From a virus (lineage: Duplodnaviria; Heunggongvirae; Uroviricota; Caudoviricetes), in the IMG/VR virus record IMGVR_UViG_3300031994_002305, positions 165,073 to 229,072 of that record: a DNA stretch of 64,000 bases. One strand, 5' to 3'. The notes beneath the pieces were generated by a model, which was given only the letters and a program-made list of their open reading frames with translations, had not been told where the DNA came from and ran no database searches. A program made the translations under genes and the position numbers. This document shows, one piece after another, positions 4,280 through 50,951 of the stretch (within the stretch, counting starts at the first letter, position 1; each line of letters opens with the position of its first letter).

Positions 4280-4690
4280 ATGATACCATTATCACAGTAT
4301 ATTAAAGAAACAAAAGACGATTACTTAAATGGTTTTGTAATTTTAAAACCAGAATTTTTGGATCATTCAGATGAATGGCTAAAAATACTCCAAGATAATG
4401 AATGGGATATTCTTGATAAACAAACATTAACATTATCTGAGGAACAAGCAAAAGAACTTTATAAAATGCATAAAGATAAAGATTTTTATAATGATTTATG
4501 CAAATATATGAGTTCAGGAGAATGCTTATGTTGTAAATGTTATAAAGAATGTAATGATCCTATTGAAGAAATGAATAAAATCAAAGATGATATTCGCAAA
4601 AAATGGGGTAAGGATGATATGAAAAATGCTATGCATAGTTCTGATTCACTTCAAAACGCAAAAAGAGAATCAAATATAGTATTTAAGTAA
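4280..4690 (+). CDS. ndk: nucleoside diphosphate kinase-like protein
   Basis: N-terminus 'NGFVILKPEF' resembles the NDK 'ERTFxIIKPD' motif. 'SEEQAKELYKMHKDKDFYNDLCKYMSSGE' resembles NDK 'EQARGFYAEHxGKPFFxxLVEFMTSGP'. C-terminal 'NAMHSSDSLQNAKRESNIVF' resembles NDK 'NxxHGSDSVESAxREIxxFF' and keeps the catalytic His. The N-terminal 'SQYIKET' resembles the I-x-E tag seen at 19-26 kb. Confidence 0.55.
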   Translation: MIPLSQYIKETKDDYLNGFVILKPEFLDHSDEWLKILQDNEWDILDKQTLTLSEEQAKELYKMHKDKDFYNDLCKYMSSGECLCCKCYKECNDPIEEMNKIKDDIRKKWGKDDMKNAMHSSDSLQNAKRESNIVFK

Positions 4691-19722: not shown

Positions 19723-20367
19723 ATGAAACAAATAACATCATATATTTTTGAAAAAATAAAAGAACTACCAAATTCTGTTAAAGGATTAATAGTTTTTGAT
19801 ATTGACGATACATTATTAAAAGTTGATCCTGCTTTAATGGGTGTTTATAAAAAGGAACCAGGTAAACAAGAAATTAGATTAACTACTGATGAGTTTGCTA
19901 AAGATCCTGATGCAGAAGACCCATCAAAGAAAAAATGGTTTGATTTTAGAGACTTTCAGGATCCAATAAAAGTATATAATTCTATAATTTCAGGAACTCC
20001 ATTAATTAAAAACTTGAAAATTATGGATGATTATATTAAAGCTGGATATGATTTTTGTTTCCTTACAGCTCGTGGTTGTGAAGAAACAATTAAAAAAGCT
20101 ATTGGAGATTTCTTGAAATTTAGAGATGAAGATGGCGCATTAAAAGAACTTGGTGATTCGTTTAAGAAAACATTTTCACATGCAGTTAATGATGAAATTA
20201 AGCAATATCCAGGTTCTAATGATGCTGAAAAGAAAGCGAAGATATTAATAAAACTTTGTAAAAAATATGATAGAGTGGTATTTGTAGATGATGACAATAA
20301 AAACATAAGTGCTGCTCGTGATTTGAATATTAAAAATCTTAAAGTAATTAAAGCTTGGGAAGATTAA
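19723..20367 (+). CDS. HAD-superfamily phosphatase-like protein with N-terminal tag (MKQITSYIFEK)
   Basis: 'GLIVFDIDDTLLK' is HAD motif I (DxDxT). T4 Pnkp phosphatase uses the same motif. Confidence 0.5.
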   Translation: MKQITSYIFEKIKELPNSVKGLIVFDIDDTLLKVDPALMGVYKKEPGKQEIRLTTDEFAKDPDAEDPSKKKWFDFRDFQDPIKVYNSIISGTPLIKNLKIMDDYIKAGYDFCFLTARGCEETIKKAIGDFLKFRDEDGALKELGDSFKKTFSHAVNDEIKQYPGSNDAEKKAKILIKLCKKYDRVVFVDDDNKNISAARDLNIKNLKVIKAWED

Positions 20368-20402
20368 AATTAAATAGAAAAAATTTAAATAATATTTACA
20401 AA

Positions 20403-20432
20403 AGATCTATATATCAATATAGGTCTTTTTTA
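20403..20432 (+). terminator. rho-independent terminator (agatctatat-atca-atataggtct + TTTTTT)
   Basis: 10-bp stem with one G-U pair and a T6 tail. Confidence 0.5.
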
Positions 20433-20457
20433 TTTTTATATATATATTATATGAATC

Positions 20458-20838
20458 ATGAAGCATTTACAAGAATATATAATTGAAACTTCATTAGAAA
20501 TTAAACAACAAAAATTTAATGGTGGAGGAAGGTTTTATTGTAATAAAGGAGATTTAGATTATACTGATGAAATTGAAATATATCCAGTTAATCATAATAA
20601 TTGTTTTGAACTTACTAATTTAACAGCATTTGAAAAAAACAAAGGTGTTGGAACTTTGTTATTAAACAAAATGATAGAATATGCTAAATCTCAAAATAAA
20701 GACATAGTTTTATATGCATCTCCACTTGATGATAAAAATGAAGATGATTTAATCAAATTTTATAAAAAGTTTGGATTTATTGAAGATATTAAAGCTCACG
20801 ATAAACATTGTTTAATTCTCCAAATTAATAAAGCATGA
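20458..20838 (+). CDS. GNAT-family N-acetyltransferase-like protein with N-terminal tag (MKHLQEYIIET)
   Basis: 'AFEKNKGVGTLLLNKMIEYAK ... FYKKFGF' matches the GNAT motif A/B pattern. Confidence 0.45.
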   Translation: MKHLQEYIIETSLEIKQQKFNGGGRFYCNKGDLDYTDEIEIYPVNHNNCFELTNLTAFEKNKGVGTLLLNKMIEYAKSQNKDIVLYASPLDDKNEDDLIKFYKKFGFIEDIKAHDKHCLILQINKA

Positions 20839-21755
20839 AAAAAGTCAATATCTGTCTTGGAAGATTCCAGCCATTTACATTAGGTCATTATAAAATGATT
20901 GAATATGGTTTTAAAGAAAATGGATTAACAACAGTTATATTAATGATTCATAACAAGAAGATGGATTCTAAACATCCATTTGATGATGAATTAATTCAAA
21001 AGGAAATGGAACTTATAAAAAATTCATGTCCTAATATTGAAGATACTATATATGTTGATAATGCAGATTTAGTTAAATTTGGACAGAAACTTAAAGAAAA
21101 AGAATACGAAGCTCAACTTTGGATAACGGGCAGTGATAGATTGACTAGTTATAAAAGAATGGCCGAAAATTCAAAATATCAAGAGCAAGGCGGATATCCT
21201 TCATCATTTACGACATTAGAAGTTCCTCGTACAGATGAAGACATATCTGCAACCAAAGTTAGAGAAGCAATCAATAATGATGATATTGATACATTTAAAA
21301 AGATGATGCCTAAAGGTTCAGAAAAACTATTTAATGAATTTAAAGAACAATTATCAAACATTAAAGAAGGTATGATGGCATTAAAAGATTATATAATTGA
21401 ATCTATAAGAATTGATGATTCTGATTTTAGTATTGCTAAACGATATGCAATGACTCATAAAAAGAAATATAAAAACAAAAAATCAGAATCTCAAGACAAG
21501 TATTTTTCAGAACAAGAAAAAGGTGAAATAATGAAAGATATGTGGGATAAAGATGGTTTATTTTATAAGTTTATGAAAGATAAAGTAAATCATTTAACCA
21601 ATAATGAAATTGGTGATTATCTTTATAATCAATGTCTTAATGATGATAGATGTACTGCAGAATTTGCTTCATATATTGCTGAAGTAATCGGTAGAAATAA
21701 TTTCAATATTAAACAAGTGCAAAAATTTATAAATACAGAAGATCTTAAAGGATAA
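20835..21755 (+). CDS. NMN/NaMN adenylyltransferase-like (cytidylyltransferase-fold) protein with degenerate HxGH motif and extra C-terminal domain
   Basis: 'CLGRFQPFTLGH' resembles NadM/NadR NMNAT 'GRFQPFHxGH', with the first His replaced by Thr. 'ISATKVREA' resembles the ISSTxIR motif. An internal tag-like 'MMALKDYIIESIRID' occurs at about aa 176. Confidence 0.45.
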   Translation: MKKVNICLGRFQPFTLGHYKMIEYGFKENGLTTVILMIHNKKMDSKHPFDDELIQKEMELIKNSCPNIEDTIYVDNADLVKFGQKLKEKEYEAQLWITGSDRLTSYKRMAENSKYQEQGGYPSSFTTLEVPRTDEDISATKVREAINNDDIDTFKKMMPKGSEKLFNEFKEQLSNIKEGMMALKDYIIESIRIDDSDFSIAKRYAMTHKKKYKNKKSESQDKYFSEQEKGEIMKDMWDKDGLFYKFMKDKVNHLTNNEIGDYLYNQCLNDDRCTAEFASYIAEVIGRNNFNIKQVQKFINTEDLKG

Positions 21756-21796
21756 TAATGAAATTACTTAAATATATACATTAGAATTAATAAGAA

Positions 21797-22027
21797 ATGA
21801 AACAATTAGTTACAAAAATAAATGAAGTAAAGTCTAACGAATTTTCAATTTATTTTAATTATGATAAAAATTCAATAGCTATCCATAAATATGGAGATGG
21901 GAATGATATTGATAAAACTGGTTTTAAAACAATTGATGAAGCTGTAAAAGTTATATACAAAAAATATAATAAAGCTTATATTAATATTATACCAAGTGAA
22001 AAACTTATTGAATATATAATTAAATAA
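21797..22027 (+). CDS. small protein with N-terminal tag (MKQLVTKINEV)
   Basis: Member of the tag family. Confidence 0.4.
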   Translation: MKQLVTKINEVKSNEFSIYFNYDKNSIAIHKYGDGNDIDKTGFKTIDEAVKVIYKKYNKAYINIIPSEKLIEYIIK

Positions 22028-22028
22028 T

Positions 22029-22916
22029 ATGAAACATATATTAGATTATATTAAGGAATCACTTAATATATTTGAAGGAGGTAATGCAGTTAAATCAGAG
22101 CCAATTCCTGCAGTTATAGCTCCTAAAGTATATGATGAAATTGAAAAGAAAGTTCATGCTGTATCAAAATTTAAAGATATAGATATGGCAGCTTTAGGCA
22201 GCATTGGAAAAAAAGCAGATGATCAAACTAATGGTGATATTGATGTTGCTGTAAGAGTTGATACGAAAGATGAATTAAATGAAATTGTCGATACTTGTTT
22301 TAAAGATTGTGAAATCAATTATAATACAATGAAGACAATTACTTCATTTGGTTATCCATATAATATAGATGGATATAAAGGAATTGCTCAAGTTGATTTT
22401 ATGATAGTTCAAAAGATGGATTGGGCTAAAGCATATTATCATTCACCAAACCTTAAGACTGGTGAATCAAAATATAAAGGAGCTATTCGTACTGCCATGC
22501 TTGCTGATATAATTGCATGCATACCAGTTCCTGATGTTAAAGATGAATATTTTGAAGATGGTATTACAGTAAAACGTAAATGGAAACATACGTTTAATAC
22601 TGAAGGTGTATTTGTTCAATTAATAGATTACTGTGGAAAGAAAGGTGAGCCAGTTAAAAATGGCAAGAAATTAAAAGAATTTGAAAAACTTGTTACTAAT
22701 GATCCACTTAATATGGTGAGATTTATATTTGGTGAAAATGGAACATTAGCAGACATTAATTCAGCAGAATCATTATGGAAAGCAATTCATGATAATTCAA
22801 AATTTAAGTGGGGAGATGAAGTCTTATATAATACAGAAAAGAAAATTATAACAGATAAAATGCTTATTGAAAAAATCAATAAAGAAGATTTTAAATGTAC
22901 ACAATATAAAGAATAG
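22029..22916 (+). CDS. polymerase-beta-superfamily nucleotidyltransferase with N-terminal tag (MKHILDYIKES)
   Basis: 'ALGSIGKKADDQTNGDIDVAV ... QVDFMI' matches the hG[GS]x(9-13)DhD...D/E catalytic triad pattern of pol-beta NTases. The gene ends with TAG. Confidence 0.5.
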   Translation: MKHILDYIKESLNIFEGGNAVKSEPIPAVIAPKVYDEIEKKVHAVSKFKDIDMAALGSIGKKADDQTNGDIDVAVRVDTKDELNEIVDTCFKDCEINYNTMKTITSFGYPYNIDGYKGIAQVDFMIVQKMDWAKAYYHSPNLKTGESKYKGAIRTAMLADIIACIPVPDVKDEYFEDGITVKRKWKHTFNTEGVFVQLIDYCGKKGEPVKNGKKLKEFEKLVTNDPLNMVRFIFGENGTLADINSAESLWKAIHDNSKFKWGDEVLYNTEKKIITDKMLIEKINKEDFKCTQYKE

Positions 22917-22941
22917 TTATTTACTTAAAATTTAATTGAAT

Positions 22942-24330
22942 ATGGATCATTTGGTTGATAAATATCTTAAGAAACCTGAAGTAGTTAAAGAACTGTTTCA
23001 AAAAGAAGTTTCAATAAGTCTTAAAGTTGATGGTGCTGCTTTTCAGATATCTTGCGATAATAATAATATAACTTATCATAAGCGTGGTGGCAGTTCAAAA
23101 TCATTAGGTCCTATTATTGACGAATATACACAATTAATGAGAAAGAATGTAAATGATGCTATTGAATATTTTGAAGCTAAGAAAGATATATTAAAGAAAT
23201 ATAAATTCTATGCTATTGAAATGTTTAATGATTCTTACATTCTTTTAACTGTTATTGATAATAGCAATAATATAATAGATGATCCAAATGTTTTAAAAAA
23301 TATTGCTAAATCATTGGGTATTGATTGCGTTCCAATTTTATTTAATGGAGTTCTTAAATCTGAACAAATTGAATCATTAGTTTCAATGATGACATTAGCT
23401 CCCAGTACAACAGATAATGTTTATAAAAAATATTTAACAGATATTTTTGGAAAGGGAGAATATGAAAAGTTTTTAAATGGAGATGAAATTGAAGGTATTG
23501 TTTTAACATGGAATATAGATGATAAAATACAGCAATATAAAATTATCAACCCTGCATTCAAAACTCGTCACGATAAAGAAATTAAAGATGGAAATGAAGC
23601 ATTCAAAAAAGAAATAGAAGAGCTTACTGAATTGTTTGAATTCTTTTATGAATCATTAAATAAATATGGTTCATATCAATCAGATAATTGGATTACTAAC
23701 CTGAATAAGAATTTTATTAATATTATTAATAAAGAAGAATCTAAAATTAAAGAATTTGACAATAAAATTCAACCTAAATTTAAAGATTTCTTCACATTAC
23801 AAATTAATAAAGTTTCAACTGATATTAAAGAATTAATTGATAAATATGGAGATAATATGAAATTTTATTATGAAAAGTATTTGTTATTATTCAATAAACC
23901 TAAGAAACGTAATTTTACAATATCTAAAGAATTTCAAATCAAAGTAAATTCTTTAATAGAAAAACTACAAGATAAAAACGAATCATTAAAAACATATACA
24001 ATACGTAAGATGAAAACTATTAATGAATATATTAATGAAGAAAAAAAGACAACTGGTGCAGGTTGTGCTCAAATGATCCAAACAATTATAGATGAATTAA
24101 AAACTCATGATGATTGTAACTATGATAAAGAAAAAAATGAATGGACAGGAAAAGATGGCGAAATGTGGAAATCTGCTGGTCAATTCTTGTACGATTATTT
24201 GTCAGAATTAAATCAAAATGACTTTAGAAAAATTGTAGATTCAATGGGTTGGAAAAAATGGATTGCAGATATTGACGATATTAATCAAGCTGAAATTGGA
24301 TTATGTCTTGCATTAGAACTAAAAAATTAA
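22942..24330 (+). CDS. ATP-dependent RNA/DNA ligase-family protein (nucleotidyltransferase motifs I, IV, V)
   Basis: 'ISLKVDGAAF' is motif I (KxDG). 'DEIEGIVLTWN' is motif IV (EGhVh). 'QQYKIINPAFK' is motif V. The start is moved from track TTG 22936 to ATG 22942. Confidence 0.45.
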   Translation: MDHLVDKYLKKPEVVKELFQKEVSISLKVDGAAFQISCDNNNITYHKRGGSSKSLGPIIDEYTQLMRKNVNDAIEYFEAKKDILKKYKFYAIEMFNDSYILLTVIDNSNNIIDDPNVLKNIAKSLGIDCVPILFNGVLKSEQIESLVSMMTLAPSTTDNVYKKYLTDIFGKGEYEKFLNGDEIEGIVLTWNIDDKIQQYKIINPAFKTRHDKEIKDGNEAFKKEIEELTELFEFFYESLNKYGSYQSDNWITNLNKNFINIINKEESKIKEFDNKIQPKFKDFFTLQINKVSTDIKELIDKYGDNMKFYYEKYLLLFNKPKKRNFTISKEFQIKVNSLIEKLQDKNESLKTYTIRKMKTINEYINEEKKTTGAGCAQMIQTIIDELKTHDDCNYDKEKNEWTGKDGEMWKSAGQFLYDYLSELNQNDFRKIVDSMGWKKWIADIDDINQAEIGLCLALELKN

Positions 24331-47406: not shown

Positions 47407-47479
47407 TTAACATAATAACAGTAAGTTATTTATTTTTATTTGATATTTATTTATAACAAAAATATTGGAATACAATAAT

Positions 47480-49093
47480 ATGACAAATAAACGTTGCTTG
47501 ATCTATGAAACATTGGGTGAAGTTAAACAATTACAAGTTTCTGAAGCAGCAGCGCCTAAAGGTATGATGAGACTTGAAGGTGTATTTGGCGTATGTGGTA
47601 TTAAGAATCAAAATAATCGTGTTTATGATAAAGAAAACTACCGTCAAATGGTAGAATCTTTACAAGCAGTTATTAAAGAATCTGGTTGTCCTGGTGAATT
47701 GGAACATCCAAATTCAATGAATATCAATCTTGAAAATGTTTCACACAAGATTGAAGATATTCAAATGAATGAAGATGGAACTATCACAGGTACAATTCTT
47801 TTATTAAATACCCCTAAAGGTCAAATAGCTCAAGCCATTGTAGAAGGTGGTCTTCCACTTTATATTTCATCTCGTGGTGCTGGTACTATTACTAATGAAG
47901 GTAAAGTTACTTTATCTACAATCAAAACTTATGACTTAGTTGGTACACCTGGTTTCAGTCAAGCCAAATTAACTCTTAAGCAAAATCAAACTTTAGAATG
48001 TTTAAATGAATCTGCTGAAGAAGGTAATGTTATTTATGCTATTGTTGAAGGTGAAGAATCTAAAACAGATGATAACGAAGATCCTAAAAAAGAAGATTCT
48101 AAAAAAGAAGACGATAACAAAAATAAAGATAATGGTAAAGTAGATATGAAAGAACTTAAAGAAGCTATCGATAAGCTTACTGAGAAGGTTACTTCTCTTG
48201 AGGCTGAACTTCATGTAGCTCAAGAATCTTTAAATGAAGCAAAATCTATCAAACCAACTAATTATGATGCTATTCAACAATGGGTAACTGAAGAATTCTG
48301 GCCTGCATATAAGAATCAGATCCAAATTCCTGAAGGTGTATCTATGGAAGATATTGAAACAATGGTTGATGCTAAATTAAGTGAATCAATTAATACAATA
48401 GCTGAAGGTGTTGAAAGTTGGGTTGTTGAAGAATTTGCCCCAGAAGTACAGAACTGGGTAGTTGAAGAATTTGCTCCAGAAGTACAGAATTGGGTAGTTG
48501 AAGAATTCGCTCCAGAAGTTCAGAACTGGGTAGTTGAAGAATTTGCTCCAGAAGTTCAAAATTGGATTGTTGAAGAATATTCACCAGAAGTACAAGGTTG
48601 GATTACTGAAGAATTTGCACCAGTTGTTGAAGGTTGGATTAATGAAGAATTCGCTCCTGAACACAAACAACAAATTGAAGAAGCTGTAAATGCTAATGTA
48701 TCTGCATTTATGGAATCACAAAAGGCTGGTCGTCTTGATGAAATTGATAGTTTATTAGAATCAATTGCTCAAGATGGTAATAATGATGTTAATAAGATTG
48801 TTGCTGAACAACAAAAAGAAAACAAGTACAAAGGAATTTATGTAGTAGAAAGCATGCCTGCTGAATATACTGCATCTTGGGAATTACTTGATGAAGCTCG
48901 TCAACAAGAAATTATTCGCACTTCTAAGATGTATGACTTCACAAAAGAAGGAGTACTTGAATCATTCTGGGCTAATGTAGATTTTAATAAGACTACAAAA
49001 ACTGAAAGAATCAACGAAAATAATAACCCAGTTGATAACTATCAAATGAATATTGTTAACAGAATGAGATCACTTCGTGGTTTATATGCTTAA
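47480..49093 (+). CDS. prohead protease (HK97/T4 gp21-like) fused to acidic scaffold-like domain with 13-aa tandem repeats
   Basis: The N-terminal approx. 170 aa ('RLEGVFGVCGIKNQNNRVYDKENY ... GELEHP') resemble HK97-family prohead protease motifs. The remainder is an acidic coiled coil with 7 x 'W(V/I)VEEFAPEVQN'. It lies directly upstream of the MCP. The start is moved from track TTG 47465 to ATG 47480. Confidence 0.45.
   Translation: MTNKRCLIYETLGEVKQLQVSEAAAPKGMMRLEGVFGVCGIKNQNNRVYDKENYRQMVESLQAVIKESGCPGELEHPNSMNINLENVSHKIEDIQMNEDGTITGTILLLNTPKGQIAQAIVEGGLPLYISSRGAGTITNEGKVTLSTIKTYDLVGTPGFSQAKLTLKQNQTLECLNESAEEGNVIYAIVEGEESKTDDNEDPKKEDSKKEDDNKNKDNGKVDMKELKEAIDKLTEKVTSLEAELHVAQESLNEAKSIKPTNYDAIQQWVTEEFWPAYKNQIQIPEGVSMEDIETMVDAKLSESINTIAEGVESWVVEEFAPEVQNWVVEEFAPEVQNWVVEEFAPEVQNWVVEEFAPEVQNWIVEEYSPEVQGWITEEFAPVVEGWINEEFAPEHKQQIEEAVNANVSAFMESQKAGRLDEIDSLLESIAQDGNNDVNKIVAEQQKENKYKGIYVVESMPAEYTASWELLDEARQQEIIRTSKMYDFTKEGVLESFWANVDFNKTTKTERINENNNPVDNYQMNIVNRMRSLRGLYA
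48419..48691 (+). repeat. 7 tandem copies of a 39-bp repeat encoding W(V/I)xEE(F/Y)(A/S)PEVQ(N/G)
   Basis: Copies start at 48419, 48458, 48497, 48536, 48575, 48614 and 48653. The first four are nearly identical at the DNA level. Confidence 0.8.
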
Positions 49094-49138: not shown

Positions 49139-49190
49139 AATATATAATTCTCAAAAGAGAAATAACAAATAAATTTTGATTATAAATAAT

Positions 49191-50951
49191 ATGTATAATG
49201 AACAAAATGGCGCAGTTACATGGGAAAAAATGTTGAAAGAAAACTTCAACGTTAATGACCAGGAAAAACTTAACTGGGTTTCTCAATATGCTGCTATTCA
49301 CGAAATTCATGAATCTCAATTAGGTATTAACGGTGGTAATGTAGTTCCATCTGCAGCTCATCCTGGAGTTAACCCATTATATGCTACACCAATGAATACT
49401 CTTGGTATTGGCAATCCTACAGCTCCAAGTCAATTAGATCCAATGAGCACAGCACCTTATAATGCTGCAAATCCTACAGGTTCATTCTGGGGACAAACTC
49501 CTGGTTCTGGTGATATTCCAGTATCAACACTTCCAATGGCTCTTAATATTGCTTTATTAACTATTGGTCTTGAACTTGTTCCTGTTATCCCTTCAAAGGG
49601 TCCTTGGGCTATGTTAACATATATGGACTTCCCTTACGCTGGTGGTAAACTTGGTCGTATCAATGAAACTTCATTTGATGGTAAAGGCGAAGGTAACGAA
49701 AACAAGCCTATTTATATTAAGATTAAGGGTCTTACTCTTACTCAAATCGCTGGTATCCGTGAAAAGATGGAAGACGGCACAGTTAAAGCTGATACTGCTG
49801 TTGAAGTAGGTGATTTCAAAGGTAAGTTCATTTCTCTTGGTCGTATGGATGCTTGCCCACTTGTTAAAGTTGTAGAAAGTGGTTCTAAATCAATCCGTGA
49901 AGCTTTTGCTACTGCAACTGCTGTTAAGTTAGGTACATATACAATCACATTAGCTGAAGCTGCTGAAGGTAAAGCTGCTCAAGCTGTTGAAGCTGACTTC
50001 GTACAAACTTCTGTAGATCTTGTTGATGGTTTTGCTAACTTCTTCGATGGTGGTAAGAATCCTATGACACGTGCTCAGAACGAAACTGGTACAGGTAATG
50101 TAATTGGTCTTCGTTTATTCAGCAAGTGGATCCAAATGGGTTCATACGAAGTAACTGGTACTGTTACACGTCAACAATTACAAGATCTTCCATTATATGG
50201 TGTTGATGCCGTATCTAAAGTTATGGAAGCTCTTCAAAACGAAATTACACAACACATCAACCAACGTATCCTTGAAAGAGTATTTGCTCTTGGTGTTACT
50301 AACGCTGTTCAACAAAAGGCTCGTCAAGGTGTAGACCTTAACTTATGGATGGGTGCTCATGGTGATACTGCATTCGCTACAGCTTTCGCTGGTGTACCTC
50401 ACTTCACAGATATCTATGGTCATGATCATAAGGCAACTTGGGGTAATGTTAAGAATGCTGAAGTTAATACTTCTGCTGAAAATCTTGCAACACGTCAACG
50501 TCGTATCATGTCTAAGGTTCTTGCTGCTGCTAACTTGATTCAATTAGTAGGTCGTCGTGGTCGTCCAACATGGATCGTAACAAACGGTCAAGTTGCTACT
50601 GCTTTACAAGACGTATCTGGTTATGTTGTAGCTCCAATGCTTAACACAATGTCTCAAGCTAATACACAGAACTTATACCACGCAGGTACTGTTGCTGGTC
50701 TTCAAGTTTACGTAGATCCTTACATGGACTGGAATGATACTCGTATCTGTATCGGTCGTAAGGGTGATGGTAATTCACCTGGTGTAATCTTCATGCCTTA
50801 TATCCTTGCTGATACAGTTTCTATTACTGCAGAAGGTACAATGGCTCCTAAGATGTTAGTTAACAGCCGTTACACTATTGCTGAAGCTGGTTTCTATCCA
50901 GAATTACAATATCTTACAATTGCTGTTGGCTCAGAATTCGGAATTATCTAA
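49191..50951 (+). CDS. putative major capsid protein
   Basis: Position directly after the protease/scaffold gene and before the tail sheath. The codon usage is GC-richer, as for highly expressed genes. It is Ala/Gly/Val/Thr-rich and about 586 aa. The N-terminal 'AAIHEIHESQ' has I-x-E sites consistent with T4-like propeptide processing. Followed by a very strong terminator. The start is moved from TTG 49176 to ATG 49191. Confidence 0.5.
   Translation: MYNEQNGAVTWEKMLKENFNVNDQEKLNWVSQYAAIHEIHESQLGINGGNVVPSAAHPGVNPLYATPMNTLGIGNPTAPSQLDPMSTAPYNAANPTGSFWGQTPGSGDIPVSTLPMALNIALLTIGLELVPVIPSKGPWAMLTYMDFPYAGGKLGRINETSFDGKGEGNENKPIYIKIKGLTLTQIAGIREKMEDGTVKADTAVEVGDFKGKFISLGRMDACPLVKVVESGSKSIREAFATATAVKLGTYTITLAEAAEGKAAQAVEADFVQTSVDLVDGFANFFDGGKNPMTRAQNETGTGNVIGLRLFSKWIQMGSYEVTGTVTRQQLQDLPLYGVDAVSKVMEALQNEITQHINQRILERVFALGVTNAVQQKARQGVDLNLWMGAHGDTAFATAFAGVPHFTDIYGHDHKATWGNVKNAEVNTSAENLATRQRRIMSKVLAAANLIQLVGRRGRPTWIVTNGQVATALQDVSGYVVAPMLNTMSQANTQNLYHAGTVAGLQVYVDPYMDWNDTRICIGRKGDGNSPGVIFMPYILADTVSITAEGTMAPKMLVNSRYTIAEAGFYPELQYLTIAVGSEFGII

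Follow-up and report, generated by a model that had tools for sequence, protein, structure and literature searches.

Why would a megaphage gather a phosphatase, nucleotidyltransferases and a ligase in one stretch of its genome, and on what might they act? An earlier reading made from the sequence alone had proposed that three enzyme genes form an RNA (tRNA) repair or anti-defence module. We analysed the window (the whole stretch of DNA, 64,000 nucleotides) and find that the locus, in a megaphage of the rumen or gut, most likely encodes a conserved nucleic-acid end-repair enzyme set whose members belong to unannotated protein families.

Results

The three ORFs, encoding a HAD-superfamily phosphatase (19723-20367), a Pol-beta-superfamily nucleotidyltransferase (NTase; 22029-22916) and a covalent nucleotidyltransferase ligase (22942-24330), all lie on the + strand within an uninterrupted co-directional gene run and are unaffected by TAG recoding, a known feature of Lak phages. 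All three folds previously read from motifs hold, but the genes are not adjacent as described. Between the HAD and NTase genes lie a GNAT acetyltransferase gene (126 amino acids, 20458..20838, +; tag MKHLQEYIIE; Pfam Acetyltransf_1, E 8e-6), a HIGH-type nucleotidyltransferase gene and a 76-amino-acid ORF (21797..22027, +) with a weaker tag-like start, MKQLVTKINE. The GNAT gene, for which every related locus compared lacked a homologue, is a window-specific insert outside the conserved unit; the small ORF is likewise window-specific, with no homologue in related loci. The window contains no polynucleotide kinase, tRNA gene or 2',3'-cyclic phosphodiesterase.

The ligase core (~345 amino acids, 22942..23985, +) is of RNA-ligase type, with a predicted Rnl2-like adenylyltransferase domain followed by an all-helical C-domain, the two-domain plan of T4 Rnl2. 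Its active-site residues, all on the + strand and counted from a TTG at 22936 (the start shared by homologues and the gene call is ATG 22942), are motif I K30 (23023-25), E95 (23218-20), motif IV E186 (23491-93) and motif V K202 (23539-41). SLKVDG (K30), E95 and EIEGIVL (E186, G187) are invariant in 19 homologues, and motif Ia, KRGG, is also invariant; the 57 homologues found all come from metagenomic contigs of up to 465 kb. The protein meets Pfam RNA_ligase PF09414 (31.2 bits against a cut-off of 27), and hhalign against T4 Rnl2 lines up K30 with K35, KRGG with KRTG and EGIVL with EGYVL. The K-x-K once read in motif V is absent, the motif being Q-Y-K-I-I-N-P with a single lysine. The AlphaFold model (pLDDT 82.5; helices spanning residues 206-345) retrieved T4 Rnl2 as the best Foldseek match (E 2e-5), then Rnl5, Rnl3, Trl1 and Rnl1, with DNA ligases at E above 0.04. 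Rnl2 is a distant match (hhalign E 0.025, Foldseek TM 0.28-0.5); the modelled fold supports an RNA-type rather than DNA-type ligase, which resembles Rnl2 and not Rnl1. The ORF ends in an additional fused module of 114 residues that relatives encode as a gene of its own: a tag-like junction, MKTINEYINE, and ~105 amino acids (24010..24330, +) that form a free-standing tagged ORF in seven relatives (L003, L005, L006, L012, L014, L015, L018). At this junction, pLDDT drops under 50 for residues 349-371, as expected of a flexible linker. The ligase has no N-terminal tag.

The NTase (295 amino acids, 22029..22916, +) begins with the tag MKHILDYIKE (22029-22058, +) and has a family-X-polymerase-like palm and thumb. 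Its motifs, LGS...GDIDV (G57, S58, D70, D72) and D123, include the catalytic residues D70 (22236-22238), D72 (22242-22244) and D123 (22395-22397), all on the + strand; the spacer between S58 and D70 is 11 residues, not the 13 reported before. G57, D70, D72, Q121 and D123 are invariant across 62 family members at 22-50% identity. The AlphaFold model (pLDDT 90.6) adopts a Pol-beta-type fold, disordered directly after the tag, with a Pol-X-like alpha/beta thumb bearing long hairpins and then helices, and its top 50 Foldseek matches are all Pol beta or Pol lambda. The protein shares the GS...GDxD...D catalytic signature with family X DNA polymerases (Pol beta, Pol lambda, ASFV Pol X), but sequence identity to them is only 11-14%, and Pfam Pol X models went unmatched at E up to 1. 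One remote member of the family gave a sub-threshold DNA_pol_B_palm match (E 0.006). With only ~50 residues ahead of the palm, the NTase lacks the 8-kDa lyase and helix-hairpin-helix fingers DNA-binding domains of family X polymerases, and its partner ligase differs from theirs in being apparently RNA-type, without an OB domain. Among fold matches, CD-NTases have clearly lower scores than family X polymerases, and a PADLOC 'oligonucleotide cyclase' match is weak (E 0.0035, 15 bits).

We also considered whether the NTase is RlaP, a Pol-beta-superfamily NTase genomically tied to RNA ligase in operons such as that of T4 NrdC.11 and the Pseudomonas RtcB-RlaP-RtcA operon. This identity was rejected: PF10127 was unmatched at E up to 1 and hhalign returned no alignment, whereas T4 NrdC.11, the positive control, matched PF10127 at E 4.6e-12. 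RlaP consists of an NTase and a helical domain, unlike the hairpin-bearing alpha/beta thumb and following helices modelled here. The genomic tie to an RNA ligase, the trait that defines RlaP, is shared by the window NTase, which in this context is an analogue of RlaP and not a member of that family.

A HIGH-superfamily (NMNAT-like) nucleotidyltransferase at 20835-21755, overlooked by the sequence-only reading, is a fourth partner. Its nucleotidyltransferase domain, cytidylyltransferase/NMNAT-like (20835..21374, +), matches PF01467 (E 4e-8) and phrog_3041 (E 2e-17). NMNATs are the nearest named families, yet NCBIfam NMNAT models match only at E 1e-7 and far under their cut-offs (31 bits against 409); identity to an uncharacterized 'cytidylyltransferase' of T4-like cyanophages is ~26%. 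What sets the window protein apart from this cyanophage enzyme and from phage NMNATs is its position, fused to or beside the ligase and Pol-beta NTase, an association not found in the jumbo-phage survey PMC7824862. Fused to its C-terminus are a tag-like junction, MALKDYIIES, and a ~115-amino-acid module (21375..21755, +), which is a free-standing ORF in L002, L003, L012, L014, L016 and L018 and joins the ligase instead in L015, P0027 and P0036.

The HAD phosphatase (214 amino acids, 19723..20367, +) starts with a T4-CTS-like tag, MKQITSYIFE (19723-19752, +), and matches PF00702 (Hydrolase; E 3e-7), DUF2608 (E 3e-7) and phrog_415 'polynucleotide kinase' (E 7e-11); similarity to AphA is weak. 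Its motifs, FDIDDT (D26, D28, T30; catalytic D26/D28 at 19798-19806), T115, K170/K171 and DDD189-191, are invariant in 11 aligned homologues. Homologues number 925, and the best 120 of the 925 are at least 76% identical. The proposed kinship with the T4 Pnkp phosphatase fared less well than the fold: hhalign aligned only motif IV, and Pfam PNK3P and HAD_SAK were unmatched. Judged by its sequence, the protein is generically HAD and not demonstrably Pnkp-like. Motifs I and II are 89 residues apart, against 42 in T4 Pnkp (~45 extra residues), a spacing that suggests a cap insert and a small-molecule substrate.

Gene order ties these enzymes together across phages. All related megaphage loci with sufficient flank (11/11) share the gene order HIGH NTase, (NTase paralogue), NTase, ligase, even where ligase identity falls to 32%. 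In 12/12 close loci the HIGH gene precedes the NTase or its paralogue, mostly directly, and it is present in 44/78 wider loci. Of these 78 distant viral loci, 73 have enough flank; the ligase family lies downstream of the NTase in 32/73, usually as the next gene, and a ligase-like DUF6267 protein (KxDG and EGYV motifs) sits beside it in 9 more. HIGH NTase and NTase are fused in P0091, P0092 and L017. A ligase-HIGH NTase fusion occurs in L099 (Pfam CTP_transf_like at residues 380-508), and four candidates (L052, L053, L056, L071) match profiles of both families. The invariant adjacency and the gene fusions support a functional tie between NTase and ligase, and the HIGH NTase is linked to the ligase as tightly as the Pol-beta NTase is. 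The HAD gene is more loosely placed: in 11/12 related loci it precedes the HIGH NTase by 1.6-4 kb, and variable genes separate it from the HIGH NTase-NTase-ligase core. In four relatives (L003, L014, L016, L018), a tagged T4-Pnk-like kinase follows the ligase; it shares 26% identity with the kinase domain of T4 Pnkp (pairwise E 1e-6) and matches AAA_33 (E 1e-19) and phrog_505 'polynucleotide kinase' (E 4e-23). Some distant NTase-ligase pairs adjoin gp32, UvsY-like and UvsW-like genes.

The tags follow the consensus MK-x-[IL]-x-x-[YF]-I-x-E, strict copies of which stand at the start of 95 ORFs across 15 loci. The window HAD, the window NTase and the relatives' kinase are tagged N-terminally, and in the HIGH NTase and ligase the peptide lies at the C-terminus or a fusion junction. 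Nearly every gene at 19.4-26.5 kb is tagged, including GNAT and many small ORFs, and an NDK gene at 4280-4690 has a tag-like start too. No strict tag was found in the four distant phage loci scanned (L020-L023). T4 IPII and IPIII start MKTYQEFIAE, a capsid-targeting sequence (CTS) whose targeting depends on residues 4 and 7 and whose processing depends on residues 8 and 10 (PMC9026906). The close match to this sequence makes virion delivery of the tagged proteins plausible, on the strength of a 10-residue motif, so the earlier suggestion of delivery at injection is reasonable. The pattern (M1, K2, aromatic 7, I8, E10) is that of the T4 internal proteins and Alt, and here too the tag recurs on numerous proteins that are unrelated to one another and whose genes cluster at a shuffling locus. 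Like T4, the phage has a prohead maturation protease (47465..49093, +; phrog_207 'head maturation protease' E 7e-44; Peptidase_S80 E 7e-5, just below cut-off) followed by a Gp23-type major capsid protein (49176-50951). Unlike T4, where the cargo consists of small basic proteins, the putative cargo here is nucleic-acid enzymes, and the peptide occurs additionally at C-termini and internal fusion junctions.

Discussion

From the observed folds, motifs, gene order, fusions and tag similarity, we infer a set of enzymes that repairs broken nucleic-acid ends, the most probable substrate being broken RNA, for instance tRNA or rRNA that host ribotoxins have cleaved; we hold this reading with about even confidence. 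In the proposed order of steps, the HAD phosphatase would heal an end by removing a 3'-phosphate, and in sister phages the T4-Pnk-like kinase would phosphorylate the 5'-OH. The Pol-X-like nucleotidyltransferase would then replace a missing nucleotide, or a few of them, at the 3'-OH; its palm and thumb resemble those of polymerases, which suggests that it may work in a duplex, templated context. The Rnl2-like ligase would close the resulting nick. The HIGH-type nucleotidyltransferase would be an obligate partner, perhaps serving the adenylyl-transfer chemistry of ligation.

Jumbo phages are predicted to carry RNA-repair kits that combine Rnl1 or Rnl2 with PNK, HAD and the ligase-associated Pol-beta NTase RlaP, which is predicted to restore nucleotides lost to RloC-type nucleases (PMC7824862); RlaP extends damaged RNA 3'-OH ends by 1-2 NMPs before ligation and contributes to restoring tRNA function (PMC12776372). 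The locus matches such predicted "heal, fill, seal" kits, with an NTase that is not RlaP, one motif V lysine and a HAD protein that is not demonstrably Pnkp-like. These kits and the relatives' kinase favour the general RNA-repair part of the earlier proposal; the T4 Pnkp-Rnl1 pair that it cites as a parallel does not fit a window that lacks a kinase and has an Rnl2-like ligase. As in T4 Pnkp + Rnl1 repair and T4 Rnl2, a DxDxT-type HAD phosphatase is combined with an ATP-type RNA ligase, and relatives add a Pnkp-like kinase. The differences are that kinase and phosphatase are separate proteins, that the ligase is Rnl2-like, not Rnl1-like, and has a single motif V lysine, and that two nucleotidyltransferases are added to healing and sealing. 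Weighing against RNA repair are the missing kinase, tRNA gene and 2',3'-cyclic phosphodiesterase of the window, the generic HAD protein apart from the core, DNA polymerases as the best NTase fold matches, the gp32/UvsY/UvsW neighbours, the single motif V lysine and the remoteness of the Rnl2 similarity.

Several of these points would suit repair of DNA nicks and gaps, as in miniature base-excision or single-strand-break repair or bacterial LigD end joining. In this scheme, phosphatase and kinase would clean up the DNA termini, gaps would be filled by the Pol-X-like enzyme, perhaps with ribonucleotides, and the ligase would seal the ribo-patched DNA; a kit injected along with the genome would mend damaged phage DNA on entry. 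T4 Rnl2 requires a ribo 3'-OH at the nick, and T4 Pnkp-type kinases act on both DNA and RNA, an activity that counts toward this alternative. Family X polymerases in BER, NHEJ and ASFV repair likewise have as partners a ligase and a phosphatase or kinase that cleans ends; the Foldseek matches to Pol beta and Pol lambda and the DNA_pol_B_palm hit point the same way, and CTS-like tags imply co-delivery with DNA. The gp32, UvsY-like and UvsW-like neighbours fit DNA repair equally well, but gene neighbourhood in T4-like genomes is weak functional evidence. The far better match to RNA than to DNA ligases, the helical C-domain without an OB fold, the absent 8-kDa and helix-hairpin-helix domains and the unmatched Pol X model lead us to regard DNA repair as unlikely.

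The tags themselves raise a second, rather improbable alternative, that there is no joint pathway and that this is a T4-like 'internal protein' locus where unrelated tag-sharing genes gather and shuffle, each with its own post-injection target: nucleotides might be the target of the HAD protein, NAD+ supply that of the NMNAT-like HIGH NTase and a host protein that of GNAT. Such a locus would account for tags on nearly every gene and on NDK, for modules that shuffle at the tag (one C-terminal module on the HIGH NTase here and on the ligase elsewhere), for the window-specific GNAT and 76-amino-acid ORFs and for the variable genes around HAD. It does not account for the order kept in every close locus, pairing that persists in distant phages, where the four loci scanned lacked a strict tag, the fusions, or the kinase recruited to the same spot in four relatives. 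For the HAD protein alone, it could be true.

A nucleotide-signal or NAD+ counter-defence module is very improbable. In such a module, the NTase would act like a CD-NTase or OAS, synthesizing signalling oligonucleotides or using them up, NAD+ would be regenerated by the HIGH NTase, and phosphorylated signals would be degraded by the HAD protein. The weak PADLOC match, the NMNAT-like HIGH domain and the known NAD+ salvage by HIGH NTases in jumbo phages (PMC7824862) speak for this reading, but CD-NTases are poor fold matches, the NMNAT score is far under cut-off, neither Nampt nor Nudix, the typical partners in phage NAD+ salvage, was among the window ORFs scanned, and the ligase, the most constant neighbour and sometimes fused, is left without a role.

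For end repair of RNA, the tags bear on when the enzymes would act. Whether N-terminal, C-terminal or at a junction, they make it probable that the kit enters the prohead, is trimmed by the maturation protease and passes into the cell along with the DNA; tag processing by this protease presupposes that the tags work as a capsid-targeting sequence. If injected, the kit could act ahead of any phage protein synthesis.

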